Of a stretch of 64,000 nt of DNA, positions 13,502 to 55,069 are shown one piece after another. A program made the position numbers and the translations under genes. Source of the DNA: Candidatus Hydrogenedentota bacterium. Its GTDB lineage: Bacteria > Hydrogenedentota > Hydrogenedentia > Hydrogenedentales > SLHB01. The notes under the pieces are model-generated. The model was not told the DNA's origin, did not search any database, and worked only from the letters and a program-made list of their open reading frames with translations. Location of the stretch: the NCBI GenBank assembly GCA_036789645.1, contig DAIQLC010000002.1, positions 22,398 through 86,397 on the forward strand, in the 5' to 3' direction. Every line of letters starts with the position of its first letter. The stretch's first letter is position 1.

Positions 13502-13599
13502 TTCAGTCCCCCTTACATGGTTGCCAATTTCCGTGATACGATACGGAATTATCCGCGTAAATAATTGAGGCATAACACGATACGTATCTTGTCAAGAGA

Positions 13600-28333: not shown

Positions 28334-29686
28334 TCACGCCGCCGGATGCTTCCAGGGGCTTCGATAGGGGCGCAGGAGCAGTTTCGTGGCTTCCGGGTCA
28401 CCGGAGATTTCCCGCTTCACCGGGTCGTACACAAGGGTCCTGCCCGTCTTCATGGCGAGGTTGGCGAGGATGCAGCTTGCCGAGGAAATGTATCCTTCCT
28501 CGATGTCGGCGACCGGCCGTGCGGCGGTTTCGATGGCGGTCACGAAATCGAGCATATGACGCCGGGTCGCGGGGGCGGCCTGCAGTTCGATGCCCTCTTC
28601 GGTCAGATCCTCGGGGTACTGTTCGCGTTCGAACACGGCGTCTTTGTGGATGGGTTCTCCCTTGCCGCGGGGGATGAAATCGTAGCTGTTGATGCTGCCT
28701 TTGAGCGTGCCCTTGTCGCCGTAGAGAATGAATCCCCAGGGGTATGCCGGGTCGGGTGCGTCGCCCCAGGAGCGGTGCTGCCATACCACGGTAAGATCGT
28801 CGTAGGTGAACGTTGCAGCCTGAGTGTCGCTCGTGGTGGCCGCCGATCCCTTCTGCATGTAGATGCCGCCGGAAGACGCAATGCTCCTGGGCCAGCCGAG
28901 TCCAAGCATCCACCGGACGGCGTCGAACATATGGACGCCCATGTCGCCGACGATCCCGTTGCTGTATTCCATGAACGCGCGCCACCAGCCCCGATGCGGC
29001 AGGTGGTCGTAGGGGCGCAGGGGCGCGGGGCCGGTCCACATGTCGTAATCCAGAAACTCGGGCACCGGAATAGGCTCGGGGGCCTCATTGGCGCGCATGT
29101 GGTAGTAGCAGCACATGTCGACATAGGCGACCTTCCCCAGCAGGCCCGCGTCGACGATGTTTTTCTTGGCCTCAATGAGATGGGGGGTGCTTCGGCGCTG
29201 CATGCCGACCTGGACGACGCGGTTATGCCGCCGCGCGGCGTCCAGCATGGCCTCGCTTTCGCGCACGTCGACGGACGTGGGTTTCTGGACGTAGACATGG
29301 GCGCCGGCTTCGACGGCGGCGATCATGGTGAGGGCATGCCAGTGGTCCGGGGTGCCGATGAGCACGATGTCGAGGTCTTTTTCGGCGAGCATCTCTCGGT
29401 AATCGCGGTAGGTGCGCGGCGTCTTCCCCGATTTCTGGCGCTGGCTGATCAGATCCGCGGCGCCCTGGAGCATCTGGGCATCGACGTCGCAGATGGAAAT
29501 GACTTCGACGGGCGCCACCTGCATCAGTCGAAAGAGGTCGCTCTTGCCATACCAGCCCGACCCGATCAGGCCGGCGCGCCACGTCTTCTGGCTGACGACA
29601 TCCACGGCATCGGCGCCCAGCGCCGACAACGCCGCCGAAGCGGCGGCGGCCTGGAGAAATCCCCGGCGATTCATCGTGAAGCTCAT
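28334..29686 (-). CDS. Gfo/Idh/MocA family oxidoreductase, TAT-exported (second copy in the window).
   Basis: TAT motif NRRGFLQAAAASAA, Rossmann GLIGSGWYG, IGTPDHWHA, VYVQKP. Start at the ATG at 29686 (RBS gaggga 5 nt upstream); alternative ATGs at 29692 and 29674. Antisense 505-aa ORF rejected. Confidence 0.85.
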   Translation of the reverse strand: MSFTMNRRGFLQAAAASAALSALGADAVDVVSQKTWRAGLIGSGWYGKSDLFRLMQVAPVEVISICDVDAQMLQGAADLISQRQKSGKTPRTYRDYREMLAEKDLDIVLIGTPDHWHALTMIAAVEAGAHVYVQKPTSVDVRESEAMLDAARRHNRVVQVGMQRRSTPHLIEAKKNIVDAGLLGKVAYVDMCCYYHMRANEAPEPIPVPEFLDYDMWTGPAPLRPYDHLPHRGWWRAFMEYSNGIVGDMGVHMFDAVRWMLGLGWPRSIASSGGIYMQKGSAATTSDTQAATFTYDDLTVVWQHRSWGDAPDPAYPWGFILYGDKGTLKGSINSYDFIPRGKGEPIHKDAVFEREQYPEDLTEEGIELQAAPATRRHMLDFVTAIETAARPVADIEEGYISSASCILANLAMKTGRTLVYDPVKREISGDPEATKLLLRPYRSPWKHPAA

Positions 29687-42511: not shown

Positions 42512-44671
42512 TTATTCGCCGAGGAATCCGTGGGCCCGGGCCATGTAGTACGCGAGGAGGTACGGGACGCCTTCGCGGAGGCGCGTGCCGTCGCCGCTGT
42601 AGGTGAGCGCCCAGGGGTCGAGGTCCCAGTAGATCTCGTGGCGTTCGTCGATGGGGAAGACCTGGCCGTCGTGGCGCCCCCCCCTGCCGGTGGGCTGACC
42701 GGTTTCGTCCAGGATGGGCGCCATATCGATGCGGTGGGCGTTGGACATGGGCCAGTCCACCAGGTCAAGCGGATAGCGTCTCAGCGTGTCGATGGCGTCG
42801 TCGAAGCAGTGCTTTTGCGGCGTGAGGTCCACGGTACCCCACTGGTCGGTGCGGGTCTTGCCGAGGCAACACGCGGCATAGATGAGATTCGTGAACGGAT
42901 TGCGCTCGCGTTTTTCGTGCTGCCAGTGGTTCATGATCGCGAAATGGTACATGCTAAGCAGTTTGGGATCGGTCTCATAGCGAATCAGGTGGTAGTAATT
43001 CATGAAGGCCATGTTGTCGTCGGGCTGGTGGCCCACAAAACCCGGTCCGGACAGATACCCGGGCTGGGTCATGCCGTTCATGCCGTAGCCGTGTTCGAGG
43101 GCGAGTTCGAGGTAGACGTCGCGGTATCTCGGGTCGCCCGTGATGTGGTGGGCAATGGAGAGGTAGGTCAGAATGCTGAACGAGTTCAGGCCGCGTTCCG
43201 CGCACCAGGCCTCGTTCCTGTTCAGGTCGTCGGGGGAAAAACGGCCCCAGCGGGTCGGCTGGCCGTCGTGGTCCACGAGGTTGTAGCCGTGGTCCAGGAT
43301 GTGGTCGATGATGCGCCGGACGGCCTGGCGCACTTCGTCGCGTTCCGATTCGGTCTGGCAGACCCGGTCGAAGTAGATGGCAAACCCGAAGAAATGGCCG
43401 TCAAGCTCGTCGGAACTCGAATCGTTCTTCCAATACCATTCGCCCGACGCATCGACGGGCCAGCGGGGTTGAATGATCTTCCAGAGGGCGTCGCGTTCCC
43501 GGCGGCGGAGGTCGTAGGCCCGGTCGAACTGGGGGTTGGGGTCCGGTTCTGACGTGGGCAGTACGGCCCGTGCGATAAACCCTTTCGGCGCAGGGTGGGC
43601 GCCGCCTTCGGTGACCTCGCTCAGAAAGGCGAGGGCGTGAAACGCATTGACGGCGTCGTGCTTCAATGTCTCGCTGCGGGTCACGGCATACCCGAGGCTC
43701 ACCGCGCCGAGATAGAGTCCCGTGAAATGCCCATCGTTGTCGGTAAACACCGGCACGGCGCTGCGTTTGTCGCCCGGCGAGGCGAGCCGGGCGGGATTTA
43801 CGTAACCCAAACGGGTGCGGCGGTGGTACTTCTCAATTTCGTCGATGAAAAACACCGCCTTGCCGGAGAACGTCATCGGTTCGAACGCGATGCACGACAC
43901 GCCCTGCGCCGTCGCGAACCAGGCGTTGCCCTCGGGGTCGATGGCAATGTCGCGGACGTGGTTGTCGAGGAGCCAGCGCCGTCCCTGCCGGAACGCCCAG
44001 TGGCCGTCGCGGTAATGGATCGCCCCGTTGGTGGTGCCGAACCAGACGCCCCTGGGACCGGCGGCCATGCAGGTGAAGTCGTTGTACGGCAAACCGTCCG
44101 CGCCGGTAAAGAGTTTCCAGTCCGTGTCGGTGATGCGGCACCCGACCCCCTGCGGCGCCGCAAACCACAGGTGTCCGGAGTCGTCGTAGGCGACGCTGCG
44201 CACGTCGACCGGGGCCCAGCGCACGGTGCCCTCACGGGGGAGAGCCCGTTCCCATTGGGCAGCCTTTTCGAGATACAGGCCCGTGTCGCAGGCCACGGCC
44301 CATTCGCCCTGGTTTTGGGCTACGGCGCGAATCTCAGGTTCGGCGCCCGCGACGTTCCGCAAACGCGCGCGCTGTTCATGGACAAGCGTTGGCTTGGCAA
44401 AGATCTCCGAAGAGACCTGCGGTTCCACGCGCCACTGTCCTGCCTGAAAGATCGCCCATCCCCCTGCGGTTTCCGCGACGATCCGGCCGCCGGCATCCCG
44501 TGCCACCCGTAGCACGTTGTTGTCAGGCAAGCCCTCCTGCGTCGTGTAGGCCCGGTGGACGTCCTGCTCGAACATCTCCGCGGCGAACGGCAGCTCGTAT
44601 CCCGCTTCCTGACTGTGCGCTATGGCGCAGGCCAGACTCAGCCCTATCCCGGCAAACACGGTCGCGCGCAT
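42512..44671 (-). CDS. Hypothetical secreted protein: N-terminal beta-propeller (two-component-regulator-propeller-like) repeats + C-terminal (alpha/alpha)6-barrel-like glycosidase-type domain.
   Basis: ATG at 44671 with RBS caggaggg. Signal peptide MRATVFAGIGLSLACAIAHSQEAG. Repeats GLPDNNVLRVARDAGGRI, GVWFGTTNGAIHYRDGHW and GNAWFATAQGVSCI. The C-terminus is helical-repeat rich with conserved acidic residues. Confidence 0.65.
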   Translation of the reverse strand: MRATVFAGIGLSLACAIAHSQEAGYELPFAAEMFEQDVHRAYTTQEGLPDNNVLRVARDAGGRIVAETAGGWAIFQAGQWRVEPQVSSEIFAKPTLVHEQRARLRNVAGAEPEIRAVAQNQGEWAVACDTGLYLEKAAQWERALPREGTVRWAPVDVRSVAYDDSGHLWFAAPQGVGCRITDTDWKLFTGADGLPYNDFTCMAAGPRGVWFGTTNGAIHYRDGHWAFRQGRRWLLDNHVRDIAIDPEGNAWFATAQGVSCIAFEPMTFSGKAVFFIDEIEKYHRRTRLGYVNPARLASPGDKRSAVPVFTDNDGHFTGLYLGAVSLGYAVTRSETLKHDAVNAFHALAFLSEVTEGGAHPAPKGFIARAVLPTSEPDPNPQFDRAYDLRRRERDALWKIIQPRWPVDASGEWYWKNDSSSDELDGHFFGFAIYFDRVCQTESERDEVRQAVRRIIDHILDHGYNLVDHDGQPTRWGRFSPDDLNRNEAWCAERGLNSFSILTYLSIAHHITGDPRYRDVYLELALEHGYGMNGMTQPGYLSGPGFVGHQPDDNMAFMNYYHLIRYETDPKLLSMYHFAIMNHWQHEKRERNPFTNLIYAACCLGKTRTDQWGTVDLTPQKHCFDDAIDTLRRYPLDLVDWPMSNAHRIDMAPILDETGQPTGRGGRHDGQVFPIDERHEIYWDLDPWALTYSGDGTRLREGVPYLLAYYMARAHGFLGE

Positions 44672-44972
44672 GGGGCCCTCCTGCGGGGCAGGCCGCCCTG
44701 GGGCCGTGCACCGCGCGTTGTATCCCGCCCTTTCTTCACAAACGCGGGCATCATGATACCTCACTCCGTGCGGCGGAACCATCGGCGCCGGGAAACTTGT
44801 GATGATGCGCGGATTCTGCTCCAATGGCCCCGTTAGCGGTACGTAATCGGGCCGGCACGGGGCGCCTGGACGAACGGGGACACGCGCGGATTCACGTGCG
44901 GGCCGGAGTGGCACGGCTCCGTGCGCTCCCCCGCCCGCCGGAATAGCGGGTTCCATTCGGGAAGGTGAGGAT

Positions 44973-47900
44973 ATGACGTTTTTGCTTTTGTCTGTAAGCT
45001 GTTCGCTTCATCTCCTGGCGGCCGCTCCCGCCCAGGTGACGGCGCAGGACTTCGCGCGGGAAATTGAACGTGCGCTGCCGGTGGAGGAACGGTATGCCTG
45101 CCACGCGTGGCTCTCGGAGGCGCCTGTGCATGTGCCAGGGCGGAACCCGGACACCCGCATTTCGGCGGGAGAAATGGCGTTCGCGGAAGATGGGTGGCGG
45201 CTCGTCTATGACCAGCGGAGCGGGGCGGTGCTTCAGACGGCGGTGCTGGATTTTCAGGATTATCTGAAGGTCTCCATGGGCGTTGACTTGGCGGTCGAGG
45301 GCCGGGACTCGCTCGAGGGCTGGGAGAACCTGCCCCGCTGCATCGTCGTGGGAACGCGCGACCAGTTGCCGGGGTGTGGCGCGGCGTTGACGGGACCCAA
45401 GGACTACGAACTCACGGCCACCCCCGAACGGGTGACGGTGTGCGGGTACGACGAACGGGGCGCCATGTTCGGGCTCTACAACCTGGAGGCCCGGATGAAT
45501 CTCCGCGAGGGACCGTTCCTGCCCGCGGATCTGAGTGTGGTGCGGCACAGCCTGTACAATGCGCGCCTGGTCCATTCCTGGATGGGGTGGATGGAATTCC
45601 CGGACACCCTGCTGTCGCGTCTGGCCCACGACGGGTTCGACGCGATCTACGCCTCCGCGTTGGCGAACCCGAACGGCGACCGCACCACCGCGGAGACGTC
45701 GACCGATTTTTACGCACGAATCCTGTTCCGGATGCGGCATCAGGATCCGGCCCGGATGCGGGACCTCATCGACCGGGCGTCGCGATACGGCATCAAGGTG
45801 TATGCGCCTGTCATCTACCAGTATATGGGGACGCCGGAGAGCGAGGAGGGTCTTCGAAACCTCGTGCGGGAGATCCTGGCGCAGTTTCCCGATATTCAGG
45901 GATACGTGCTGCTCACGGAAGGCTTCTGGTACAAGCAGTGGGGCGGAGGGCATGGCGCGAGCGAAGCGTACATGCACGACTGGGCCCAGAACTGGAGTCG
46001 GGCCGTGGGCATCGTGGCGGAGGAGTGCCACCGGGTGAATCCCGCGATTGAGATTCTTCCGTGGGAGTACAACATCGACTTCCGGCCGCAAAACGCCCCC
46101 ATGAAGCGCTACTTCATCCAGCAGCTTCCGCAGGACACGATTCCCCTGGTTACATGGGAGAACGGGAAGAGCTTCGAGATCGACGGATTCCAGGGCCATC
46201 TGCGGGACTATGCGATCAGCCAGGTGGGGCCCGCGGAGGTCACGCAGGCGCAGATCGAAGAGGCGCGCCGGCGGGGCATGAACGTCTACACCAACGGCGA
46301 CACGTTCGTATGCGGCGCTCAGTTGCAGACCGTGCCGTACCACCCGTTCCCCTATCAATGGTACGAACGGTACAAGGCGATGCAGGAACACGGCGTGAAC
46401 GGAACACTCGAAAGCTGGTCCACCGGATACTCGCCGAGTTTCATGACCGAGCTGCGGGCGTGGTACTGCTGGAGCGGCGCTCCGCCCCTCGATGAACTGC
46501 TCCGGGCCATCGCGGCGCGCAATTTCGGGGCCGGGAGCGAAGAAACGGTCCTGAGCGCCTGGGACCGGTTCAGCCAGGCCATCCGGCTGGTGCCGGATAC
46601 CGGTCCCACGATGGGAACCAGCCATGCGATCGGCAATCCGCTGTTTTTTCAGGAACCGCCGGCCCGCACGACCAGATTCACACGGTCGTGGACGGATGAG
46701 GGCACGTGGATGGGCTACCTGGGCGGCGAGATCAATCCCTGGTGGCCGTTCACCGTATCGCGTCTGGTGTTCTGCCCGGATTTCACGAACCAGTCGAACC
46801 GGGCCGAATCCTATGCCCGCAGTGTCTCGGGGATTGAAAGCAGGCCGGACGAACGGTTTCTGCCCGTATTTCTCAAATACCTGCAGGCAGCGGCCGACAA
46901 ACTGGAAGACGGGTTGACGCTCTACCGGGCCGCCGCGCTGGCCAGTCCCGAGGCCAAACGGGACGGCGCGCTGCGCGAAGTCGTTGTCGTCGAGCAGATC
47001 CAGCGGATGCTCCTGAGCAACCGGGCGATCCTCGAATTCGAAGACCTTCGCCTGCAACTGGCCGCGGAACAGGATTCGGGAAACGCCGGCGCCATCCTGG
47101 ACCGGATGGAGACCATCCTTCGCGAGGAAATCGCCCGAACCGAGCTGTCGCTGCTTGCCGCCGCACGGGATTCACGCCTGGGCTTCCAGTCGGAATGCGA
47201 CTACGTCTACACGCCCTACTCGCTTCAGGAAAAGCTGGAGCTCCTCCGCGAGACGCTTGATGTACAGTTGCCGGCGCGGCGCGGACTGGCCGTCGCGACC
47301 GGGAGCGCGGTTGACGTGCCCGACGACGACTTTTCGCGGGAAGTGGCCCGGGTGCTTCCTCCGGAGGAATCCTACGCGTATCACAACAGGCTGTCGCAGG
47401 ATCCCGTACATGTGCCGCGGCGGAATCCCGAGGCCAGCGCGAACCCCGATGAACTGGCGTTGCCCGACCAGGGCTGGACACTGGTGTGGCGCCAGCGCGG
47501 CGGGGCCGTGCTTCAGAACGCGGTCCAGGACTTTCAGGATTATCTCAAGACCTCGATGGGCGTGGAGGTCAATGTCGAGGGCCGGGATTCGCTCGACGGT
47601 TGGCAGGGGCTGACCGGGTGCATCGTTGCGGGTACGCGCGACCAGTTGCCGGATTGTGGGGCGGCGCTGACGGGTCCCAAGGACTACGCGATCACCGCGG
47701 CGCCCGGGCGGGTGGTGGTGTGCGGGTACGACGAGCGGGGGGTGATGTTCGGGCTGTACAACCTGGAGGCCCGGATGAACCTGCGCGAAGGACCGTTCCT
47801 TCCCGCGAATCTGAATACGGTGCGGCACAGCCTGTATGACATGCGGATGATCGAGTCCTGGATGGGCTGGATGGAATGGCCGGACACGCTGCTCTCCCAC

Positions 47901-49628
47901 CTGGCGCACGATGGGTTCGACGGGATTTTTGCGTCGTGTTACGCCAACCCGAACGGGGATCGCACCACCGCCGAGACCTCGACCGACTTCTACGCCCGCC
48001 TGCTCTACCGGGTGCGCCGGCAGGATCCGGCCCGGATGCGGGATCTGGTCGACCGGGCTTCCCGCTTCGGCATCAAGGTGTATGCGCCAATCATCTACCA
48101 GTCCCTGGGCACGCCCGAGAGCGACGAGGGGCTGCGCACGCTCGTGCGCGACATTCTGGCCGAGTTTCCGGACATTCAGGGGTACATCCTGCTGACGGAA
48201 GGCTTCTGGTACCGGAGGTGGGGCGGTCTGCACGGCGCGGACGAGGAGCACGTGAAGGATTGGGCGCGGAACTGGGCGCGGGCGGTGGCCATCGTGACGG
48301 AGGAGTGCCACCGGGTCAATCCCGCGCTCGAGATACTCCCGTGGGAATACAACATCGATTTCCGGCCGGGAAACGTCGCGATGAAACGCTATTTCATCCA
48401 GCAACTACCGGCCGGGAGCATTCCCCTGCTGACCTGGGAAAACGGGAAGAGCTTTGAGCTCGACGGCATGAAGGGGCATCTGCGCGATTATTCGCTGAAC
48501 CAGATCGGGCCCGCCGAGGTGACCGAGGCCCAGATTGCCGAAGCGCGCGCGCGCAACATGAAGGTCTACAGCAAAGCCGACACGTTCGCCGCATGGCAGT
48601 TTGGCACCAGCCCGTACCTCCCGTTTCCGTATCAATGGTACGAGCGCTACAAAGCGCTCGAAGCGCATGGCGTCAACGGAACGCTGGAGAGCCACAGCAG
48701 CGGCTATACGCCGAACATGATGACCGGCCTGCGGGCATGGTATTGCTGGACGGACGCGCCGCCGTTCGAGGCGCTGCTTGGCGCCGTGGCCGCGCGCACA
48801 TTCGGAGACGCCCAGAAGGACCTGGTGTTGCAGGCCTGGGACCACTTCAGCCAGGCGATCCGTCTCGTGCCCGATACCGGCCCGAATATGGGTACCAACA
48901 ACGCCGTCGGGAATCCCCTGTTTTTCCGGGAGCCGCCCCTGCGAACCACGACGTTTACGCATTCCTGGACGGACCACCAGAAATGGATGGGATACTTCGG
49001 CGCGGAGGTCAATCCGTACTGGCCGTTTACGGTATCGCGGATGGTGTTCTACCCCGATTTCACGAACCGGGTGAACAACGCCGAACTCTATGCGCGAAGC
49101 GCCACCGGCGTGGAGGTTGGACGAGAAACGAAGGTCCTCCCGGTATTCCTCGACTACCTGCGGCGGGCGGCGGACGAAATGGAACTTGGGCTGAGATTGT
49201 ATCGGGAGGCGGCGCTCGCTAGCCCCGAGCCCAGGCGGCGGGAGGCCGTGCGCGAAGTGGTGGTCGCCGAGCAACTGCAACGGATGATGCTAAGCGATGG
49301 CGCCGTGCTTGAGTTCGAGGATCTCCGCCTGCAGCAGGCCGCGGAACCCGACCCCGGGAAGGCGGAGGCGATACTGGACCGGATGGAGACGATCCTGCAG
49401 GAGGAAATCGCCCGGACGGAACGAGCGCTGCTCGCCGCATCACGGGATTCGCGTCTCGGATTCCAGTTCGAGCAGGATTACGTGTACACGCCGTATTCGC
49501 TGCGCGAGAAGCTCGAGCACCTGCGCGAGACGGCCGAGACCCACTTGCCGGAACGCCGGCGCGAGCTCAGCGCCGCGCGTCAGCTGGTTCCGGAAGCAGT
49601 GACAACCGATTCGGGGCAGGGCAGGTGA
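44973..49628 (+). CDS. Giant (1551 aa) secreted protein: in-frame tandem duplication of a ~760-aa uncharacterised glycoside-hydrolase-like module (DUF4838 / GH20-N-like architecture is a guess).
   Basis: ATG at 44973 with RBS gaaggtgagg. Signal peptide MTFLLLSVSCSLHLLAAAPAQVTA. The two halves align over their whole length, for example GIKVYAPVIYQYMGTPESEEGLRNLVREILAQFPDIQGYVLLTEGFWYKQWGG against GIKVYAPIIYQSLGTPESDEGLRTLVRDILAEFPDIQGYILLTEGFWYRRWGG. The same nucleotide string cgcgaccagttgcc occurs at 45357 and 47637 (offset 2280 nt = 760 codons). Confidence 0.8.
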   Translation: MTFLLLSVSCSLHLLAAAPAQVTAQDFAREIERALPVEERYACHAWLSEAPVHVPGRNPDTRISAGEMAFAEDGWRLVYDQRSGAVLQTAVLDFQDYLKVSMGVDLAVEGRDSLEGWENLPRCIVVGTRDQLPGCGAALTGPKDYELTATPERVTVCGYDERGAMFGLYNLEARMNLREGPFLPADLSVVRHSLYNARLVHSWMGWMEFPDTLLSRLAHDGFDAIYASALANPNGDRTTAETSTDFYARILFRMRHQDPARMRDLIDRASRYGIKVYAPVIYQYMGTPESEEGLRNLVREILAQFPDIQGYVLLTEGFWYKQWGGGHGASEAYMHDWAQNWSRAVGIVAEECHRVNPAIEILPWEYNIDFRPQNAPMKRYFIQQLPQDTIPLVTWENGKSFEIDGFQGHLRDYAISQVGPAEVTQAQIEEARRRGMNVYTNGDTFVCGAQLQTVPYHPFPYQWYERYKAMQEHGVNGTLESWSTGYSPSFMTELRAWYCWSGAPPLDELLRAIAARNFGAGSEETVLSAWDRFSQAIRLVPDTGPTMGTSHAIGNPLFFQEPPARTTRFTRSWTDEGTWMGYLGGEINPWWPFTVSRLVFCPDFTNQSNRAESYARSVSGIESRPDERFLPVFLKYLQAAADKLEDGLTLYRAAALASPEAKRDGALREVVVVEQIQRMLLSNRAILEFEDLRLQLAAEQDSGNAGAILDRMETILREEIARTELSLLAAARDSRLGFQSECDYVYTPYSLQEKLELLRETLDVQLPARRGLAVATGSAVDVPDDDFSREVARVLPPEESYAYHNRLSQDPVHVPRRNPEASANPDELALPDQGWTLVWRQRGGAVLQNAVQDFQDYLKTSMGVEVNVEGRDSLDGWQGLTGCIVAGTRDQLPDCGAALTGPKDYAITAAPGRVVVCGYDERGVMFGLYNLEARMNLREGPFLPANLNTVRHSLYDMRMIESWMGWMEWPDTLLSHLAHDGFDGIFASCYANPNGDRTTAETSTDFYARLLYRVRRQDPARMRDLVDRASRFGIKVYAPIIYQSLGTPESDEGLRTLVRDILAEFPDIQGYILLTEGFWYRRWGGLHGADEEHVKDWARNWARAVAIVTEECHRVNPALEILPWEYNIDFRPGNVAMKRYFIQQLPAGSIPLLTWENGKSFELDGMKGHLRDYSLNQIGPAEVTEAQIAEARARNMKVYSKADTFAAWQFGTSPYLPFPYQWYERYKALEAHGVNGTLESHSSGYTPNMMTGLRAWYCWTDAPPFEALLGAVAARTFGDAQKDLVLQAWDHFSQAIRLVPDTGPNMGTNNAVGNPLFFREPPLRTTTFTHSWTDHQKWMGYFGAEVNPYWPFTVSRMVFYPDFTNRVNNAELYARSATGVEVGRETKVLPVFLDYLRRAADEMELGLRLYREAALASPEPRRREAVREVVVAEQLQRMMLSDGAVLEFEDLRLQQAAEPDPGKAEAILDRMETILQEEIARTERALLAASRDSRLGFQFEQDYVYTPYSLREKLEHLRETAETHLPERRRELSAARQLVPEAVTTDSGQGR
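45040..47300 (+). repeat. Tandem duplication unit 1 (coding).
   Basis: By-eye alignment to unit 2 gives roughly 80-85% nucleotide identity in the stretches compared. Confidence 0.8.
47340..49625 (+). repeat. Tandem duplication unit 2 (coding); lacks its own signal peptide.
   Basis: Follows unit 1 after a short linker (LAVATGSAVDVPDDDFS); same frame, no intervening stop. Confidence 0.8.
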
Positions 49629-49703: not shown

Positions 49704-50852
49704 ATGGAACGCCGCGAATTTCTTCAATGCACGCATCTCTGTGGGGCGGGACTCCTGGGGCTCAGCAGCATCGCAGCCGCCCAGACGGGTTCTCAGGAAA
49801 AGGGAGACGCGACCATGCAGACGCCACTCGTAATCCGGCCGTATCAGTTGCTCTGTACGATCTGCTCCCTGGGGGCGGAGGGGGGAAGCGGCGTCCCGCA
49901 GTATGAACGGTGCCGGGCCATCCGGGACGCGATCTGGAAGAACCCGGACGTCCCCGTGACGCTTTCGTGCAGCGCGGGAGCGCTGTTTTCCTACCAGGAG
50001 TCGGGCACGGAGGAAGACACCCCGGAAAGCGAGGAGTTCAACCGCAAACGCGACCTGGATGTGCTCCAGATTCTCAGCCTGCCGCCAGGCATCACGCTGC
50101 CCGCGAGAGCCCTGTTCAAAACCCTGGTCATGGGGGTTTCGACGGCATCGGGCCTCTGCGCGTATCACACGGTGACGGGGAAGGCCTGGGAAGGCTGCCC
50201 GCTGGCGTATAGCGGCAACTACGAGCGCGGCCACGAAAAGGGGATCGAAGCCCTCATCCCGCCCAGGTCCGAGGACGAGATGGCGGCGGAGAAGAAAAAG
50301 TCGCTTGAAGCGCTGTATGCGGCCGATGAGGTCACCGTGCGGCCGCACATTCTCGCATGCGCGGTATGCCAGTACGGGGAAGGTCTCCGCCCGCCGTTCA
50401 AGGAAGACAACCTCCCCGAACTGATTGACGTGATGCTCCACCAGAAACCCGACATCAAGGTCAAACTGGTGCGCGGGGCGGACTGGATGATGTGCGCACC
50501 GTGTCCTGGCCGCATTCCGGAACTCAACGCGTGTTCGCACGTTTGGGGCTGCGGGGAACTGGACAGCCAGAAACGCGACCTGGACCTGCTCCAGAAGCTT
50601 GGGCTCGAGTTCGGAAGCACGATGCGGGCCCGGGATTTCTATCGCCTGCTCTTTGAGCGCATGACGACCACCCACGGCATCCCCGACACGTGCATCAAAT
50701 ATAACGCGATGCCGTCGGTCTGGTGGGACGAGTGCGCGGGGCACCTGTACCAGGGCAACCCCCGTGCGAAATACGAAAAGGGCAAGCGGGAACTGATGGA
50801 AAAACTCCAGATTGCGCGCGGCGGCGCAGGGCCGTCCACCACACCGGGTTGA
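49704..50852 (+). CDS. TAT-exported Cys-rich protein made of two homologous DUF1284-like modules (function unknown).
   Basis: RBS ggaggacctgaag before the ATG at 49704. TAT motif ERREFLQ. Module 1 (RPYQLLCTIC ... KRDLDVLQILSL ... GCPLAY) parallels module 2 (RPHILACAVC ... CAPCPG ... KRDLDLLQKLGL ... ECAGHLY). It lies 75 nt downstream of the giant duplicated gene on the same strand. Confidence 0.7.
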   Translation: MERREFLQCTHLCGAGLLGLSSIAAAQTGSQEKGDATMQTPLVIRPYQLLCTICSLGAEGGSGVPQYERCRAIRDAIWKNPDVPVTLSCSAGALFSYQESGTEEDTPESEEFNRKRDLDVLQILSLPPGITLPARALFKTLVMGVSTASGLCAYHTVTGKAWEGCPLAYSGNYERGHEKGIEALIPPRSEDEMAAEKKKSLEALYAADEVTVRPHILACAVCQYGEGLRPPFKEDNLPELIDVMLHQKPDIKVKLVRGADWMMCAPCPGRIPELNACSHVWGCGELDSQKRDLDLLQKLGLEFGSTMRARDFYRLLFERMTTTHGIPDTCIKYNAMPSVWWDECAGHLYQGNPRAKYEKGKRELMEKLQIARGGAGPSTTPG

Positions 50853-50904: not shown

Positions 50905-53415
50905 TCATTTCTTTTTTGCGTACCGCACGATGAGGCTCGCGGGCATCTGCGCGAGTACGGCCTCGATGCCATCTTTGGCGAGTGATTCTCCGGTGCGTTC
51001 TTCGAGCGTGACCGTTCCGTCCTCCGCGAGGTATTCCAGCGCGTAGACGGCGCTGGGGGCGAGGGCGCTGAGCCGCACGGCGAAGTGCGTGTAGGGCGAC
51101 TGGCTGCGCCGGAAGAAATAGACCGCGCCTTCGCCCAGGTCGGGCCGGTCAAGCTGGAACGCGCACCAGTGGCCTGCGCCGTTCATGCCGAGCGTCATGG
51201 GGTAGATGTCGCCGTACCAGTATTCTGAGAGCGCCCTGGCTTCTTCGACGAAGCGACGCCCCTGTTCGGCGGGGAACGAGGGGTTGCGGTAGTCCCACTG
51301 GCAGATGAGACCCGCGGTGGCGGCCGCGCGCATGGCATAGGGCTCGGGCTGCCACGCGGTTGCCGTGTGTGCGGGCAGGTAATAGCTGATCCCGATGGAG
51401 TGGCCGGGGTTCCAGTCCGCGTTGCCGGGGAAACAATTGGTGTCGCTGCGCCAGAGCGGGATGGAGCGCGTGCAGGTTTCGAGATCGATGCGGCGTCCGC
51501 CGCTGGAGCAGTTGTCGATGATTAGCCCCGGATGGCGTGCGAGCAACTCGTCCCACATGGCATACAACCCCTCGATATACCGGATTTCCGTGAGGCCTTC
51601 CCGGCCGGGAGAGTCATTTTTGCGCCAGTATTCGAGGGGGTCCATGTTGAAGTCGTTGCGGTAGATGTCGAGCCCGTATTCCTCGATCCGGGCGGAGAGG
51701 GTGTCGGTCAGCCAGCGGCGCGCTTCGGGGAGATCGAGGCGGTAGAGGCCGCCTTGTTCGCCGCCGTGAACGAAGTCGGGGTGTTCCGAGGCGATCTGCG
51801 TGTCGGGTGCTACCCGTTCCGGCTCAAACCAGAGCAGAAACCGGATGCCGTTCTTGTGGCAGAGGTCCCCCACGGGCCGGAGGCCATTGGGAAACAGTGC
51901 CGGGTCCGCGAACCAACTTCCGACGCCGGTCGGGAAGCCTTTGGGGAACCAGGCCGCGTCGAGCCAGTGGGTGTCGAACCCGAGCGCGGCGGCGTTCTGT
52001 GCGGCGTCGAGCTGGCCGGCTTCGGTGGCCCATTCGGGGTCTTTGCGGTAATACCGGTCGAAGCACTGGAGCGCAACGGGCGGCACGACGGGCTGTCCGT
52101 CGATTTTGGGCAGGTATTCGGCGAGCAGAAGGCGGCGGAACCGGTTGTGGGCCGTCGCCGCGTCGGCAGTATTGACGAGCAGGAGGATGCGCGGCGTGCG
52201 GATCTTCTCCCCGGGATGCAGGGCGAGGCGCGTGCGCTCCATGCCGGCGCGCAGGCGCAGGTGTTCCGGGTCTTCCCGCACGGCGGAAAGGGCCCACTGA
52301 CCCGACCAGCCGATCGCGCCGACCACTGTGTTGTTGCCAAATCGCAGGTCGAAAAAGGGGAAGGCGCCGTTTGACGAGCGCCCGCCCTGCGGCGCAAGCG
52401 CGAAGGAGTTGCCGGGCTCGAGCTTTACGGTGGCGTTCTCGAAACTGGCTTCGCTGAACACGTCGCCGCGATTGTGGCCGAATTCAACCGGAAGCGCGGC
52501 CGTGCCGGTGTGCATGGTCAGGTCCAGGGCCTGGATGTCTTCGATGAGCGGGGTGTCGGCCGTGCCGCCGTTTTCAAACGAAAGCACCCAGTCCACCGCG
52601 GGATGCGCCTGGTAAACCTTGATTTCGGCGGTAACGCACAAGCGCGTGGCGGGGTCGGTCCACCGGGCGGTGCAGAGCCGGTACGTGCCGCAATCTCTGG
52701 ACGAAGCCGCGCGCTCCCAGTCCGCGAGGAAATCGCGGGAATTCCTGTCGGCATATCGAAAAGAGAAGGGGGCCTGGCCGGGCGCCATCGGCGGACGGTG
52801 GTGGCCGTCATCGAGCCAGACGGCCGTGCCATCGGCCAGGATGTAGCGGGCGTCGGCCCAGTCCGCCTGATCATGGGCGGGGCCGTCGGCGGTCGTGTCG
52901 GTCTTGAGCGTCAGGGATTGCGCGCCGGCCGGCAGGTCGACGGTTACGTGGTACGGCGCATCGCCGCCGTGCAGGACAGGCGTCTGCATGGCTGCGGCGC
53001 CGTCGACGTCAACGATGAAGACCGCGCTGCCCCGTTGTCCGCCCGTGTCGGGGTTGTTGTCGATGCCGGCGAAGGCTTCAAAGCGGACCGCACCCTCGGG
53101 GAGCGTGGCCGCGATCTCGCTGTTGGCGTGCGTGCCCAAACCGCGCTCGAAACCCCGGTCGCCGATACGCAGGGGGGTGTCGACGCAGGACATGCGAAAA
53201 TGCAGCTCGCTGAAGTCCTGCCGTTTGAGTTGGAGTTCGACAGGCGCCGCCGTGGATGAGTCCAGGGCGGGGTCGCCGAACACGTCCGCGGCCCATGCCG
53301 CAACGGCGGCACGTTCATCCGGACCCGCCGAGACGGCCTCGGCCCGCGCGGCGCTCTGGGCAAACAGAAAAGCACACAGAACCAGAACGTAGACGGCAAT
53401 CGACGAATCTCTCAT
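50905..53415 (-). CDS. Glycoside hydrolase family 36 alpha-galactosidase-like enzyme with N-terminal NPCBM carbohydrate-binding domain, secreted.
   Basis: ATG at 53415 with RBS caggag. Signal peptide MRDSSIAVYVLVLCAFLFAQSAARA. NPCBM-like segment LRIGDRGFERGLGTHANSEIAATLPEGAVRFEAFAGIDNN. GH36 barrel motifs YGLDIYRNDFN and DNCSSGGRRIDLE. The track ORF extends upstream to 54513 only because no stop intervenes. Confidence 0.8.
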   Translation of the reverse strand: MRDSSIAVYVLVLCAFLFAQSAARAEAVSAGPDERAAVAAWAADVFGDPALDSSTAAPVELQLKRQDFSELHFRMSCVDTPLRIGDRGFERGLGTHANSEIAATLPEGAVRFEAFAGIDNNPDTGGQRGSAVFIVDVDGAAAMQTPVLHGGDAPYHVTVDLPAGAQSLTLKTDTTADGPAHDQADWADARYILADGTAVWLDDGHHRPPMAPGQAPFSFRYADRNSRDFLADWERAASSRDCGTYRLCTARWTDPATRLCVTAEIKVYQAHPAVDWVLSFENGGTADTPLIEDIQALDLTMHTGTAALPVEFGHNRGDVFSEASFENATVKLEPGNSFALAPQGGRSSNGAFPFFDLRFGNNTVVGAIGWSGQWALSAVREDPEHLRLRAGMERTRLALHPGEKIRTPRILLLVNTADAATAHNRFRRLLLAEYLPKIDGQPVVPPVALQCFDRYYRKDPEWATEAGQLDAAQNAAALGFDTHWLDAAWFPKGFPTGVGSWFADPALFPNGLRPVGDLCHKNGIRFLLWFEPERVAPDTQIASEHPDFVHGGEQGGLYRLDLPEARRWLTDTLSARIEEYGLDIYRNDFNMDPLEYWRKNDSPGREGLTEIRYIEGLYAMWDELLARHPGLIIDNCSSGGRRIDLETCTRSIPLWRSDTNCFPGNADWNPGHSIGISYYLPAHTATAWQPEPYAMRAAATAGLICQWDYRNPSFPAEQGRRFVEEARALSEYWYGDIYPMTLGMNGAGHWCAFQLDRPDLGEGAVYFFRRSQSPYTHFAVRLSALAPSAVYALEYLAEDGTVTLEERTGESLAKDGIEAVLAQMPASLIVRYAKKK

Positions 53416-53515
53416 GGGACGGTACTCCTGTTGACCGGGTTCTCGCCCTTTCGCGAGGTACGGACGGAAAAGCAAACACCGGCATGCCTGGTCCCGCGGC
53501 TGCGCCACCAATTTC

Positions 53516-53548
53516 TTGACGCCTTTCACGGACACTTGATAGTATAAT
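53516..53548 (+). promoter_or_regulatory. Promoter-like hexamers (TTGACG ... TATAAT) in the divergent region upstream of the V-type ATPase operon.
   Basis: Perfect TATAAT at 53543-53548 in an AT-rich patch. The nearest -35-like TTGACG is 21 nt upstream, so spacing is non-canonical. Confidence 0.25.
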
Positions 53549-53714
53549 ATCCGTTCTGTATCTAAAACGAGGGAGTCTGTCCGTAGCGCCCATCCTCCAG
53601 GACGATGCCACCCTGATTCCGTCAGGGAACGTGGCGAGAGCCCGTGGCACGTCCCGGAATGAATGGGGTGATACGACACCCGCCTTCCTGAATCATACCG
53701 GCGCAGGATACAAC

Positions 53715-54029
53715 GTGAAAACGCAAATCGAACAGATCCTTCAGGCGGAACAGGACGCCAAGGCCCGGGTAGCCGCGGCCGAGCAGAAAGCTCGGGAAAT
53801 CGCCGCCGCGGCTGCCGCGGAGGCGGCCCGCACCGCCGCCGGATTCCGGGACGCCGCCAAGGCGCAAGTCCAGGAACTGCTTCAACATACGCGTGAGGAG
53901 GCGGAGCGGGAAAAGAGGCTGCTGATTGAACACGCCCGTGCCGAAGCCGCGGAAATTGCCGGGCGCGAATGGACCGGGGGGACGTCCCGGATAGACGAGG
54001 CCGTCCGGTCCCTTGCCGGACTCCCCTGA
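53715..54029 (+). CDS. V/A-type ATP synthase peripheral-stalk subunit (G/H-like), ~104 aa coiled coil.
   Basis: Ala/Glu/Arg/Lys-rich heptad sequence KTQIEQILQAEQDAKARVAAAEQKAREIAAAAAAEA, typical of V-ATPase G/H or b-like subunits. GTG start at 53715; alternative GTG at 53631. Its stop overlaps the next gene start (TGATG). Confidence 0.5.
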   Translation: MKTQIEQILQAEQDAKARVAAAEQKAREIAAAAAAEAARTAAGFRDAAKAQVQELLQHTREEAEREKRLLIEHARAEAAEIAGREWTGGTSRIDEAVRSLAGLP

Positions 54030-55069
54030 TGCGCGCTCTCGCCCGATATTCTGAGGCGAATGCCATCATTCGCGCGAGCCTCTCCAGCCTGCTCACCAGG
54101 GGCCAACTGGATGAGATCCTGCGCGCGGGCGCCTTCTCGGATTCGTGGAATGCACTAAAGTCGACCGCGTACGCGGCATGGCTGCCCGAGATTGCGGCCC
54201 CGGCGCCGCTTCCCGTGGAGCGGGCCCTGAAGGATGCGACGGCATTGCGGTTCAAACGGGCCATCCGTTCGTTGAAGGGCAAGGCGGGGGAGGTGGGCGC
54301 CCTGCTGCTGTCCCGGTGGGAGCTGGACGACCTCCACGATGCGCTCCGGGCGTGGCACGCTAAAGACGCGGCGTATACTCCTCCGGTTTCCGGCGTTTCG
54401 CTGGGAACCGCCGTGCCGTTCCGCGACATCGCGCGTGCCGAAACGCTGGAGGCGGTGGGCGCTCTGCTCAGCAAGACGCCGTATGCGAAGCCTGTCCTCG
54501 AGACCGCGCGCATTTACCGGGAGACCCGCAGCCTGTTCCATCTGGAGATTGCCCTGGAGAAGGGGCACTATCGCCGGCTGATCGCCGCGATTCAGGACCT
54601 GGGCGGACACGATGCCGGCCACGGGCTGCGATTGATTGCGGCCGAGATCGACCTGGTGAATCTGTCATGGCTCTCGCGGTGTGCGTCGTATTACGAGGCC
54701 CCGGCAGCGCTCTTGCGCGAGGCCATGATCCCGAACGTGTCCGCCCTCGCGAGCACACTCGAAAAGACGGGGTTTTCGGCGGAAGAGGTCGCTGAGGTGT
54801 CGCTCCAGTACGTGTCGGAACTGGCGGGGGACCAGGGGGGCAAGGCGCCCGGGCTGGAACGGATTGCGCTGCTCGAATCGTTCGTGATTGAGGCGGCGGT
54901 TGACGCGGCGCGGCGCGAACTTGCGGGATTCCCGTTCTGCATCGCTTGTGTGATTGCCTTCTATTTCCTGATACGTACGGAATTGCGCAATCTGAGGGGT
55001 ATTTTCGCGGGACGTGCCGCCGGGTTTTCGCCCGATGAGCTGTCCGGCAGGCTTTGTGGAATCAGGTGA
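54029..55069 (+). CDS. V/A-type ATP synthase subunit C (V0 d-subunit homologue).
   Basis: All-helical ~346-aa protein in the canonical position before subunit I. Overlapping start. Family resemblance only. Confidence 0.7.
   Translation: MRALARYSEANAIIRASLSSLLTRGQLDEILRAGAFSDSWNALKSTAYAAWLPEIAAPAPLPVERALKDATALRFKRAIRSLKGKAGEVGALLLSRWELDDLHDALRAWHAKDAAYTPPVSGVSLGTAVPFRDIARAETLEAVGALLSKTPYAKPVLETARIYRETRSLFHLEIALEKGHYRRLIAAIQDLGGHDAGHGLRLIAAEIDLVNLSWLSRCASYYEAPAALLREAMIPNVSALASTLEKTGFSAEEVAEVSLQYVSELAGDQGGKAPGLERIALLESFVIEAAVDAARRELAGFPFCIACVIAFYFLIRTELRNLRGIFAGRAAGFSPDELSGRLCGIR

Follow-up and report, generated by a model that had tools for sequence, protein, structure and literature searches.

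Two long-separated sister modules with a predicted glycosidase-like fold, joined in a conserved gene fusion in Hydrogenedentota

How did a single bacterial reading frame come to encode the same large module twice, and what might such a protein do? The question is raised by an open reading frame of 1551 aa plus stop (44973..49628, forward strand) in the 64,000-nucleotide stretch of a Candidatus Hydrogenedentota contig that was analysed here, referred to below as the window. An earlier note, made from this DNA by itself, had described the frame as an in-frame tandem duplication of one enzyme module. Sequence comparisons indicate that the gene joins two sister enzymes of ancient divergence, designated A and B, in a fusion that has been conserved.

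Two complete modules in one reading frame

The ATG at 44973 opens the 1551-aa frame, and its assignment as the start is supported by a Shine-Dalgarno-like GGAAGGTGAGG (44960..44970, forward strand), read from the sequence 2 nt upstream. That one reading frame holds two full-length modules, as the earlier note had it, is borne out by the single 1551-codon frame and by gapped self-alignment, in which residues 12-448 pair with 772-1208 and residues 450-763 with 1209-1522. Both exact copies of the 14-mer CGCGACCAGTTGCC, reported at 45357 and 47637, were found; no chance matches are expected (0). A nucleotide offset of exactly 2280 bp had also been claimed. It holds up to about position 46316 and is 2277 beyond, the lack of uniformity being due to a one-codon indel, the only one in 751 aligned codons. 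Over these codons the halves share 70.8% amino-acid and 73.5% nucleotide identity, somewhat lower than the 75-80% and 80-85% estimated before; without the N-terminal 80 residues the values are 73.5% and 75.1%.

Could the two copies represent a collapsed or near-identical repeat? Only 54.5% of third codon positions are identical between the halves, exact in-register runs do not exceed 23 nt, and the most similar 90-nt window reaches 90% identity. Together with the overall nucleotide identity, these values argue against such a repeat, and the earlier statement that no assembly collapse had occurred stands. Nor have the halves been homogenised by gene conversion or concerted evolution: N-versus-C identity is 0.709 within genomes and 0.701 between genomes, and a high-identity tract was looked for and not found.

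All features of the frame lie on the forward strand. A hydrophobic N-terminal leader, MTFLLLSVSCSLHLLAAAPAQV (44973..45038), read from the sequence, is presumed to be a Sec signal peptide with an AxA-type site; orthologues carry equivalent leaders, that of L009 with a basic n-region. Module A begins with a GH20b-like alpha/beta domain (aa 23-187, 45039..45533), delineated by a sub-threshold PF02838 match, the secondary structure of the model and fold matches. It continues into a (beta/alpha)8 barrel (aa 192-502, 45546..46478), placed by the AlphaFold2 model and by invariant columns, with E316, E365, E396, D412 and E480 as invariant residues. The divergent active-face loops (aa 414-457, 46212..46343) are marked by clade-discriminating positions and by the sole indel. 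The C-terminal region and helical bundle (aa 503-770, 46479..47282) were defined from the model and from the C-termini of unfused A-type proteins; compared with the latter, module A ends in the retained tail ...LRETLDVQLPARR.

An inter-module linker, GLAVATGSAVDVPD (aa 771-784, 47283..47324), was delimited by alignment of six fused orthologues. An in-frame GTG lies within it, with GGGAG ahead, and could in principle start module B alone; the corresponding Val is missing in the L005, L006, L007 and L009 orthologues. Module B follows without a leader. Its N-terminal GH20b-like alpha/beta domain (aa 785-947, 47325..47813) again shows a sub-threshold PF02838 match, its (beta/alpha)8 barrel (aa 952-1261, 47826..48755) was placed by alignment with module A and carries the invariant residues E1076, E1125, E1156, D1172 and E1239, and its C-terminal region, with a helical bundle and a variable tail of about 29 aa, extends over 48756..49625 according to alignments. 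A leader had been noted on the first copy only, which agrees with the start of the second copy after a 14-residue non-hydrophobic linker.

Both halves retain all of the approximately 150 family-invariant columns, the acids at the barrel ends included. By sequence, two complete modules that both bear the family-invariant residues are thus present in one frame, the arrangement expected of a multi-catalytic protein with modules of one family. Decay of one half into a pseudo-enzyme was ruled out, all invariant residues being kept and dN/dS being about 0.1 in both.

Origin of the fused gene

Did one gene double in place, or were two genes joined? Neighbour-joining trees with 100 bootstraps were built for two data sets of 120-222 homologues. 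The halves are sisters in 0/100 bootstraps, and the smallest split that unites them comprises at least 118 of 224 sequences. Closest to each half are single-module proteins of about 790 aa, of clade A or clade B: the first half is 79% identical to P0049, and the second is 79-80% identical to P0001 and P0056. Separate A-type and B-type genes are found in Planctomycetota, Kiritimatiellia, Verrucomicrobiota, Bacteroidota and other Hydrogenedentota. The tandem duplication proposed at first is contradicted by these trees and by the closer relationship of each half to single-module proteins than to its partner. Since the halves are not sisters and free A and B genes exist elsewhere, the event in this lineage was a fusion of pre-existing paralogues. 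The A/B duplication itself is, as judged from the sequences, far older than the fusion in this lineage.

Sixteen sites discriminate clade A from clade B, and nine of them fall within aa 414-457 (binomial p = 7e-8). The only indel between the modules lies in the same segment, where the changes include Trp (B-type or majority) versus Ala (A-type). At 13/16 discriminating sites the B-type residue is the family majority. A/B divergence is therefore concentrated on what is, by sequence and model, the predicted active face.

Some observations could be read in favour of duplication in situ, in which one ancestral gene doubled head-to-tail in frame and diverged to about 71%. The halves are collinear over their full length with one indel, and pS between them (0.54) is not above that of the more distant fused orthologues (0.59-0.71), as might be expected if they had split more recently. 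However, a low pS is expected of two genes under the GC3 and codon bias of one genome. The halves are non-sister in 100/100 bootstraps with two data sets, each is 8-9 percentage points less identical to its partner than to single-module proteins encoded by other organisms, and free A and B genes are known from several phyla. Nor does B derive from A, because B-type residues match the majority at 13/16 sites. Duplication in situ is strongly disfavoured, and we regard it as very unlikely.

The fusion is conserved. An uninterrupted frame in which B follows A is found in 8 distinct genes, which come from independent assemblies of Hydrogenedentota type; it is present in L004, L005, L006/L093, L007, L009/L094, L088/L089 and L090. 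The fused genes are 71-91% identical, one of them lies on a 1.16-Mb contig, and A precedes B without exception. Both modules are under purifying selection (dN/dS 0.07-0.16), while values of 0.15-0.73 over aa 764-784 indicate constraint that is relaxed relative to the modules. The linker has the same 14-aa length in 6/6 aligned fused orthologues, at a sequence identity of 90% to L004 and of 24-57% to orthologues beyond this closest relative; the fixed length argues for a defined inter-module geometry. Unfused B-type proteins bear a leader of 35-40 residues that is absent from module B of the fusion, and the A tail is retained up to QLPARR at the junction. From its sequence, the junction looks like that of an adapted fusion.

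Might two neighbouring genes only appear joined, through a stop lost by sequencing or assembly error or through a chimeric join? The window apparently stems from a metagenome-derived genome, and two contigs that are 99-100% identical (L101 and L142, 1.1-1.7x coverage according to their names) apparently stop short of the junction. Such an error would nevertheless have to recur in eight distinct fused genes from independent assemblies, in the same frame and with the same linker length. The absence of about 35-40 residues of the B leader and of part of the A tail is beyond any single-base error, a nucleotide identity of 73.5% between the halves is too divergent for repeat collapse, and dN/dS indicates selection across the whole frame. 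The probability of an artefact is close to negligible.

Did the fusion of A and B occur only once? The clade formed by the N-terminal halves of all fused genes is not cleanly monophyletic: bootstrap support is 18% with L009 included and 93% for the five closest fused genes. Single-module genes nest inside this clade, so that a single fusion followed by fission and repeated fusion are both possible.

Fold and family of the modules

The AlphaFold2 model (pLDDT 84, pTM 0.88), which includes the module A barrel, shows a GH20b-like domain at the N-terminus, followed by a TIM barrel and then a helical bundle. This confident model bears out the layout of N-domain, TIM barrel and C-terminal helices suggested before, with an N-domain of alpha/beta type. 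The further suggestion that the N-domain is GH20-N-like is supported by sub-threshold PF02838 (GH20b) matches in both halves, with 18.2 bits (E 0.0045) for A and 18.9 bits (E 0.0027) for B at a gathering score of 26.1, and by fold matches to GH20, GH67, GH84, GH115 and GH138. Domains of the GH20b type are present in GH84 and GH67 too (PMC4449183). For the module, the nearest folds are GH115, GH67, GH20, GH138 and GH84, at 10-15% identity; GH115, GH67 and GH138 uronidases are the best matches, and the top Foldseek match is 6hzg (GH138; E 1.6e-17, TM 0.52, 10% identity).

Does the module belong to one of these families? In both halves no above-threshold match was obtained in Pfam (searched at E<=1), NCBIfam or PDB sequences, and PDB sequence searches returned noise only, whether one sequence or a 90-sequence profile served as the query. 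The GH20 catalytic domain PF00728 matches neither half at E<=1, PF02838 being the sole Pfam listing. Also absent from both halves is the GH20 motif H-x-G-G-D-E, with its catalytic Asp-Glu pair after barrel strand 4 (PMC10570127); the stretch that follows predicted strand 4 is LLTEGFW in both (T-E), and it is invariant in the family. The GH67 models PF03648, PF07488 and PF07477 do not match the module, there is no sequence-level match to a GH115 Pfam model or to solved GH115 chains, and the solved GH138 protein, a BT0997-type alpha-galacturonidase, gives no PDB sequence match. GH84 is defined by an Asp-Asp catalytic pair. No D-D follows strand 4 here, and GH84 O-GlcNAcase gives no Pfam or PDB sequence match. 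By DSSP element count E480 falls after the 8th predicted strand, and a clan GH-A-style '4/7' assignment is therefore unjustified.

A DUF4838 layout had been offered as a possibility. It finds no support: PF16126 is unmatched in both halves at E<=1, unlike in the DUF4838 enzymes of CAZy GH163 and GH185, and in hhalign against P0224, a protein that combines a family-like module with a true DUF4838 module, the family profile aligns to the former only. An upstream gene of about 760 aa at Bacteroidota loci was likewise rejected as a distant paralogue (hhalign probability <1%).

The family counts more than 700 close homologues, and the wider superfamily about 1,270 cluster representatives. Its conservation across phyla is unusually high for a secreted protein of this kind: columns are on average 69% identical, and clustering at 50% identity leaves the core family in 1-2 clusters. 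No characterised member was found, and literature searches on DUF1284, Hydrogenedentes glycosidases, new GH67/115/138-like families and tandem-paralogue glycoside hydrolase (GH) fusions yielded no description of the family. It could conceivably correspond to a CAZy family that was created recently and is represented neither in Pfam nor in the PDB. In kind the architecture is nothing new, as tandem catalytic modules of one family and fusions of interacting paralogues are both familiar. The value of the locus lies in a large and highly conserved family that has a confident GH-like fold and no Pfam, NCBIfam or PDB coverage.

Proposed function and genomic context

What would a protein with two such modules do? 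We consider it fairly probable that it is a secreted glycosidase-like enzyme with two active sites, assembled from old A and B paralogues, and probably a covalent A-B pseudo-heterodimer. In a Hydrogenedentota ancestor, a B-type gene would have been joined in frame onto the 3' end of an A-type gene. The fusion would have deleted the A stop codon with the last few residues of the A tail, as well as the B start codon with the signal peptide of 35-40 residues, leaving a short linker. Exported through the single leader of A, the chain would comprise two complete and, by sequence, catalytically competent modules, A (aa 23-770) and B (aa 785-1551). These may fold onto each other as a pseudo-heterodimer whose two active sites have differing substrate-binding loops and would act on two related linkages of one conserved glycoconjugate substrate. 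Candidate catalytic carboxylates are E316, E480 and D412 in A, and E1076, E1239 and D1172 in B. The putative label 'hydrolase' is taken from the fold class only, at 10-15% identity. The fusion suggests that the A and B enzyme types work together. A pseudo-dimeric pair of active sites with two specificities, as put forward in the earlier note, stays a viable reading and is to some degree supported indirectly.

The related GH20 family offers precedents: StrH has tandem catalytic domains, HexA is a heterodimer, and there is a case in which an active-site element is contributed by the dimer partner (PMC4449183). As in Streptococcus pneumoniae StrH, two similar but non-identical catalytic modules of one family are arranged head-to-tail in one exported chain (PMC4449183). 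The modules of StrH are, however, bare GH20 barrels without GH20b ('model B') and true members of GH20, whereas each module here is a three-domain unit of about 750 aa from an unnamed family and comes from one of two clades that parted long ago and whose members are encoded by free genes as well. In human beta-hexosaminidase A (HexA) the chains are paralogues, and the two active sites differ in specificity. Its alpha and beta chains belong to the same family, have a GH20b-barrel-helix layout and form a heterodimer (PMC4449183), which a covalent A-B pseudo-heterodimer would resemble. In contrast to the fusion, HexA subunits are separate chains, and the GH20 catalytic D-E pair is missing from the family described here.

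The fusion could also be real and yet carry independent catalytic units without an interface, co-delivered and possibly redundant in specificity. Multi-catalytic GHs are common, and truncated forms with one domain each were used to crystallise the two GH20 domains of StrH (PMC4449183). In most genomes, members of the family stand singly at separate loci. B-type modules are fused to unrelated domains as well (GDPD in P0003, AP_endonuc_2 in P0060), and family-like modules are fused with DUF4838 modules in P0180 and P0224. The majority of loci carry one family member only, and an obligate A-B complex becomes less likely for that reason; unfused A-B adjacency is uncommon and its order variable (B-A-DUF1284 in L001, A-x-(B-like gene) in L025). 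Against independent units stand the constant A-then-B order and the 14-aa linker, invariant in length down to 24% linker identity, whereas flexible tethers usually vary. GH67 and GH115 enzymes are often dimers, which also counts against independent units. The related GH20 enzymes are often dimers too (PMC4449183). On balance, independent units appear rather unlikely.

Downstream of the fused gene lies a potential partner (49704..50852, forward strand), encoding a 382-aa DUF1284 protein. It is cysteine-rich, with 11 invariant Cys, an internal two-fold repeat and a twin-arginine leader (MERREFLQ...) that predicts TAT export, and its fold has no solved relative. DUF1284 genes adjoin A-type and fused genes, never B-type genes. 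Within the preferred reading, the fused enzyme would act alongside this protein. As a speculative and on the whole unlikely extension, the fusion may act as a 'Rosetta stone': A and B would normally form a heteromeric pair with differently shaped sites, part of a periplasmic system with the DUF1284 protein that acts on a widespread conserved glycoconjugate. If true, this would define a new CAZy-type family and a pathway common to Hydrogenedentota, PVC bacteria, Acidobacteriota and Bacteroidota. Testable hypotheses on which proteins cooperate follow from the conservation of the A-B fusion and from the DUF1284 neighbour specific to the A type, and for expression and structural studies the fused gene provides both modules naturally in a single chain. 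Should a substrate be found, the modules would probably be the founders of a glycoside hydrolase family not described before, of interest for the turnover of carbon in anaerobic digesters and sediments.

Could the GH-like scaffold serve a different chemistry? A reaction of, for example, the lyase, phosphorylase, transferase or amidase type, directed at a small glycoconjugate or metabolite that is conserved, seems quite improbable to us; the Cys-rich DUF1284 protein might then be coupled to it as a cofactor protein. In favour of such chemistry, a cross-phylum mean column identity of 69% is more than a secreted GH would usually show, the D-E motif typical of GH20 is missing, and the neighbour linked to the A type is TAT-exported and has 11 invariant Cys. 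At 12 loci family members have ceramidase-like genes as neighbours, and a fusion to GDPD is found in one member. At Bacteroidota loci the family stands beside M24/creatinase-like, creatininase-family, DUF6786 and MFS genes, an operon context that hints at a substrate other than plain polysaccharide. Glycosidase activity, in turn, is favoured by the strong fold neighbours, all of them glycoside hydrolases, and by invariant carboxylates at the barrel strand ends, as in GHs. It is favoured also by PVC and Hydrogenedentota loci, where the surrounding genes are mostly GHs, and by a genomic context related to carbohydrates: the window encodes GH2, an NPCBM-melibiase protein and a sugar ABC transporter, and GH31, GH43, GH95, GH38 and GH2 genes lie near relatives.

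The fused reading frame and the origin of its halves

Do the two halves of the 1551-aa protein stem from a local duplication, or were two long-separated genes joined? The ORF at 44973..49628 (+) runs through 1551 codons in one uninterrupted frame, and its ATG sits 2 nt 3' of GGAAGGTGAGG. In a local self-alignment of the protein, aa 12-448 correspond to 772-1208 and aa 450-763 to 1209-1522, the sole gap being 1 residue long; both halves are thus matched near full length, and the earlier note correctly described two copies in a single ORF. The 14-mer it had placed at 45357 and 47637 is found there and at no other site (chance expectation, 0 matches). The nucleotide offset, given as exactly 2280, holds over the initial ~1.3 kb and then shifts to 2277. 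Over 751 aligned codons the halves share 70.8% protein and 73.5% DNA identity, slightly less than the 75-80% and 80-85% first estimated. Identity at codon positions 1, 2 and 3 is 82%, 84% and 54.5%, no exact in-register match is longer than 23 nt, and gene conversion between the halves has left no sign.

A homologue search with half 2 as query returned 731 homologues; among the matches listed, nearly all are ~790-aa single-module 'hypothetical proteins' of 68-80% identity, and their sources are Hydrogenedentota, Kiritimatiellae, Lentisphaerae, Planctomycetota and Acidobacteriota. These relatives form two clades, A and B, with half 1 (module A, aa 23-770) in the former and half 2 (module B, aa 785-1551) in the latter. 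The database proteins closest to half 1 are P0049 (79%) and P0041, and those closest to half 2 are P0056, P0001 and P0003 (79-80%); over the same columns the halves are 71.5% identical to each other. None of 100 bootstraps of a neighbour-joining tree with 122 sequences made the halves sisters. With the halves of six fused orthologues included, in a tree of 224 sequences, the smallest split to contain both half sets always comprised at least 118 tips. The in-frame tandem duplication originally proposed is therefore not borne out, each half being nearer to single-module proteins than to the other. Judged by these sequences, the event is a conserved fusion of two old paralogues in an unnamed GH-like family, not a local duplication.

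Genes of the two types also occur unfused in other genomes. A Planctomycetales contig has the order B (P0005), A (P0073), DUF1284; on a Kiritimatiellia contig an A gene is followed by an unrelated gene and then by a second family gene slightly nearer B than A. In one Hydrogenedentota MAG the A gene P0050 stands alone, no further family member having been found near it; the B-clade protein P0015 bears the same locus-tag prefix. At locus L001:2858-12337 (Planctomycetales, CAYUQT010000057), four successive ~770-795-aa genes without a Pfam domain precede DUF1284: the first is a distant relative (22% identity), the second gave no family match with either half in a locus-wide blastp (E<=1e-10), and the third and fourth are B-type and A-type.

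At 16 positions one residue is fixed in clade A and another in clade B. Since B carries the family-majority residue at 13 of them, A is the derived type; its changes from the majority include Trp to Ala, Lys to Asn and Leu to His. Nine of the 16, together with the sole indel, fall within aa 414-457 (binomial p 7e-8), which takes in helix 6 and strand 7, the loop that follows the strand-6 hairpin and the one leading from strand 7 to helix 7. This clustering fits distinct substrate subsites in two active sites, but does not prove them.

Conservation of the fusion and its junction

Fused loci were sought in one genome per species, with matches spanning ~4.6 kb as candidates. Stop-to-stop analysis yielded five with a single continuous frame: L004 (Hydrogenedentes UBA2224, 91%), L005 (83%; on a 1.16-Mb contig that, judging by the isolate name, stems from long-read assembly), L006 (83%), L007 (79%) and L009 (76%). 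A metagenome scan, which also returned duplicates of L006 and L009, added L088/L089 (82%) and the 5'-truncated L090 (71%), for 8 distinct fused genes in total, with A before B in every one. Between orthologues, dN/dS is 0.07-0.16 per module and 0.15-0.73 in the linker. Linker length is constant across six aligned orthologues, and linker identity runs from 90% with the nearest relative (L004) down to 24% in the farthest.

Unfused A proteins stop 10-20 residues past 'LRETL..QLP.RR', one having a longer tail, and unfused B proteins, the GDPD-fused P0003 excepted, have a 35-40-residue leader ahead of 'VTT.xFAREVERVLP'. The fused protein retains the A tail through QLPARR, followed by 14 residues and then B without its leader; measured against the unfused B proteins, the second copy thus lacks a leader, as had been noted. 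This junction (lost B leader, trimmed A tail) and its presence in many assemblies rule out a sequencing error, and the nucleotide divergence of the halves (73.5% identity) excludes repeat collapse, so that the earlier rejection of an assembly collapse stands.

The N-halves of the five closest fused genes form a clade with 93% bootstrap; once L009 is added, six single-module proteins nest within the fused N-half clade. This pattern is compatible with one fusion and later fission, or with repeated fusion. In metagenome ERZ1026792, two short contigs (L101 and L142; coverage 1.1-1.7x per their names) match the fused gene at 99-100% identity, so the same organism is present there; the matched stretches apparently stop short of the junction.

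Fold, candidate catalytic residues and probable module pairing

The module has no match in NCBIfam, nor among PDB sequences, even with a 90-sequence profile. Pfam gives a sub-threshold GH20b (PF02838) match in each half and nothing else, in keeping with the GH20-N-like option raised previously; the DUF4838 layout raised beside it fails, as that domain, the catalytic domain of GH163 and GH185 (PMC10570127), does not match the family. Sequence criteria likewise place the module outside GH20, GH67, GH84, GH115, GH138 and GH163/185, and the GH20 D-E pair is absent from the family. The family alignment has a mean column identity of 69% and ~150 invariant columns, and the core family makes up only 1-2 clusters at 50% identity; the wider superfamily counts 1,266 cluster representatives at E<=1e-3, and six scanned ~700-aa relatives have no Pfam model either. 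In two long proteins (P0180 and P0224, 1500-1600 aa) a family-like module shares the chain with a DUF4838 module. P0003 joins an N-terminal GDPD (glycerophosphodiesterase) domain to a B-type module, and in P0060 the module is fused to AP_endonuc_2.

For module A, AlphaFold2 (pLDDT 84, pTM 0.88) predicts an alpha/beta domain at the N-terminus, a beta/alpha barrel of eight strands and, C-terminally, a long bundle of helices; this is the three-part layout anticipated by the earlier note, which had a beta-sandwich as its first part. The model's top Foldseek matches in the PDB are GH138, GH67, GH84 and GH115 (E 1e-17 to 1e-13, TM ~0.5, 10-14% identity); for the predicted fold, such scores indicate a structural class shared with these enzymes, not a shared family. 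D412 is an invariant carboxylate, as are the residues after predicted strands 4 (E316), 5 (E365), 6 (E396) and 8 (E480); their module B counterparts are E1076, E1125, E1156, E1239 and D1172, and all are kept in 6/6 fused orthologues. We infer that E316, E480 and D412 are the best catalytic candidates, because the distant, 29%-identical P0224 keeps D412, E480 and the strand-4 Glu (one position off) while lacking E365 and the WENGK motif.

On the best-supported reading, the gene product would be secreted and carry two active sites, formed by paralogous modules in one chain, most likely as a covalent A-B pseudo-heterodimer. As the linker is short and of fixed length and the order always A then B, the aligned orthologues would favour a defined A-B packing over a flexible tether. 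The closest analogues belong to the related GH20 family: StrH, with tandem GH20 domains, and the heterodimer HexA. In dimeric GH20 enzymes the partner is able to contribute part of the active site (PMC4449183). The paralogue fusion is a fresh variant on this known theme; its interest lies in an uncharacterised, unusually conserved family and in the clues to partnership that the fusion provides.

Gene neighbourhoods

The DUF1284 gene (49704..50852, +) lies 79 nt downstream of the fused ORF. Across all fetched loci, DUF1284 occurs <=1.5 kb downstream of 4/6 informative fused genes, 5/21 A genes and 0/49 B genes (A vs B, Fisher p 0.0017). It follows A but not B genes, so in the fused lineage the B module separates A from its usual partner. 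The DUF1284 protein, with 717 unnamed homologues, has a twin-arginine leader, 11 invariant cysteines and an internal two-fold repeat.

Convergent with the DUF1284 gene is a 1202-aa NPCBM and Melibiase (GH27/36-like) protein (50905-54513, -), which matches the beta-L-arabinopyranosidase model of NCBIfam weakly and far below threshold. The divergent neighbour of the fused ORF (42512-44671, -) encodes a ~720-aa Reg_prop protein (two-component regulator propeller repeats) with a signal-peptide-like start (MRATVFAGIGLSLACAIAHS) and a C-terminal part lacking Pfam or NCBIfam annotation; such a protein adjoins the fused gene in L004, L005 and L006 too. A sugar ABC transporter and a GH2 are also encoded near the fused ORF. 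Gene contexts point towards the catabolism of glycans or glycoconjugates, without naming a substrate.

In Bacteroidota (loci L049, L051, L052, L053, L060 and ~10 others, e.g. L053:9857-16500) the genes form a conserved cluster in the order 760-aa protein of no assigned function, family gene, M24/creatinase-like, creatininase-family amidohydrolase, DUF6786 and MFS transporter; further recurrent neighbours are ceramidase-like, GHL6 and TAT-type GFO/IDH/MocA genes. No description of this cluster was found in the literature searched. Its gene content suggests that the substrate is a glycoconjugate or a small molecule. Ceramidase-like genes (neutral/alkaline, PF04734 N-terminal domain) adjoin family members in 12 loci from Kiritimatiellae, Acidobacteriota, Verrucomicrobiota and Bacteroidota (including L020/L081:12428-13783), directly downstream in several. 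In the window none of the Bacteroidota cluster genes, nor of their recurrent neighbours, adjoins the fused gene. More distant are GFO/IDH/MocA matches at 2717-4006 and 28343-29572 and, far from the fused gene, a 1140-aa ORF (10151-13573, -) related to the Bacteroidota 760-aa protein, with 24% identity over 10190-12466.
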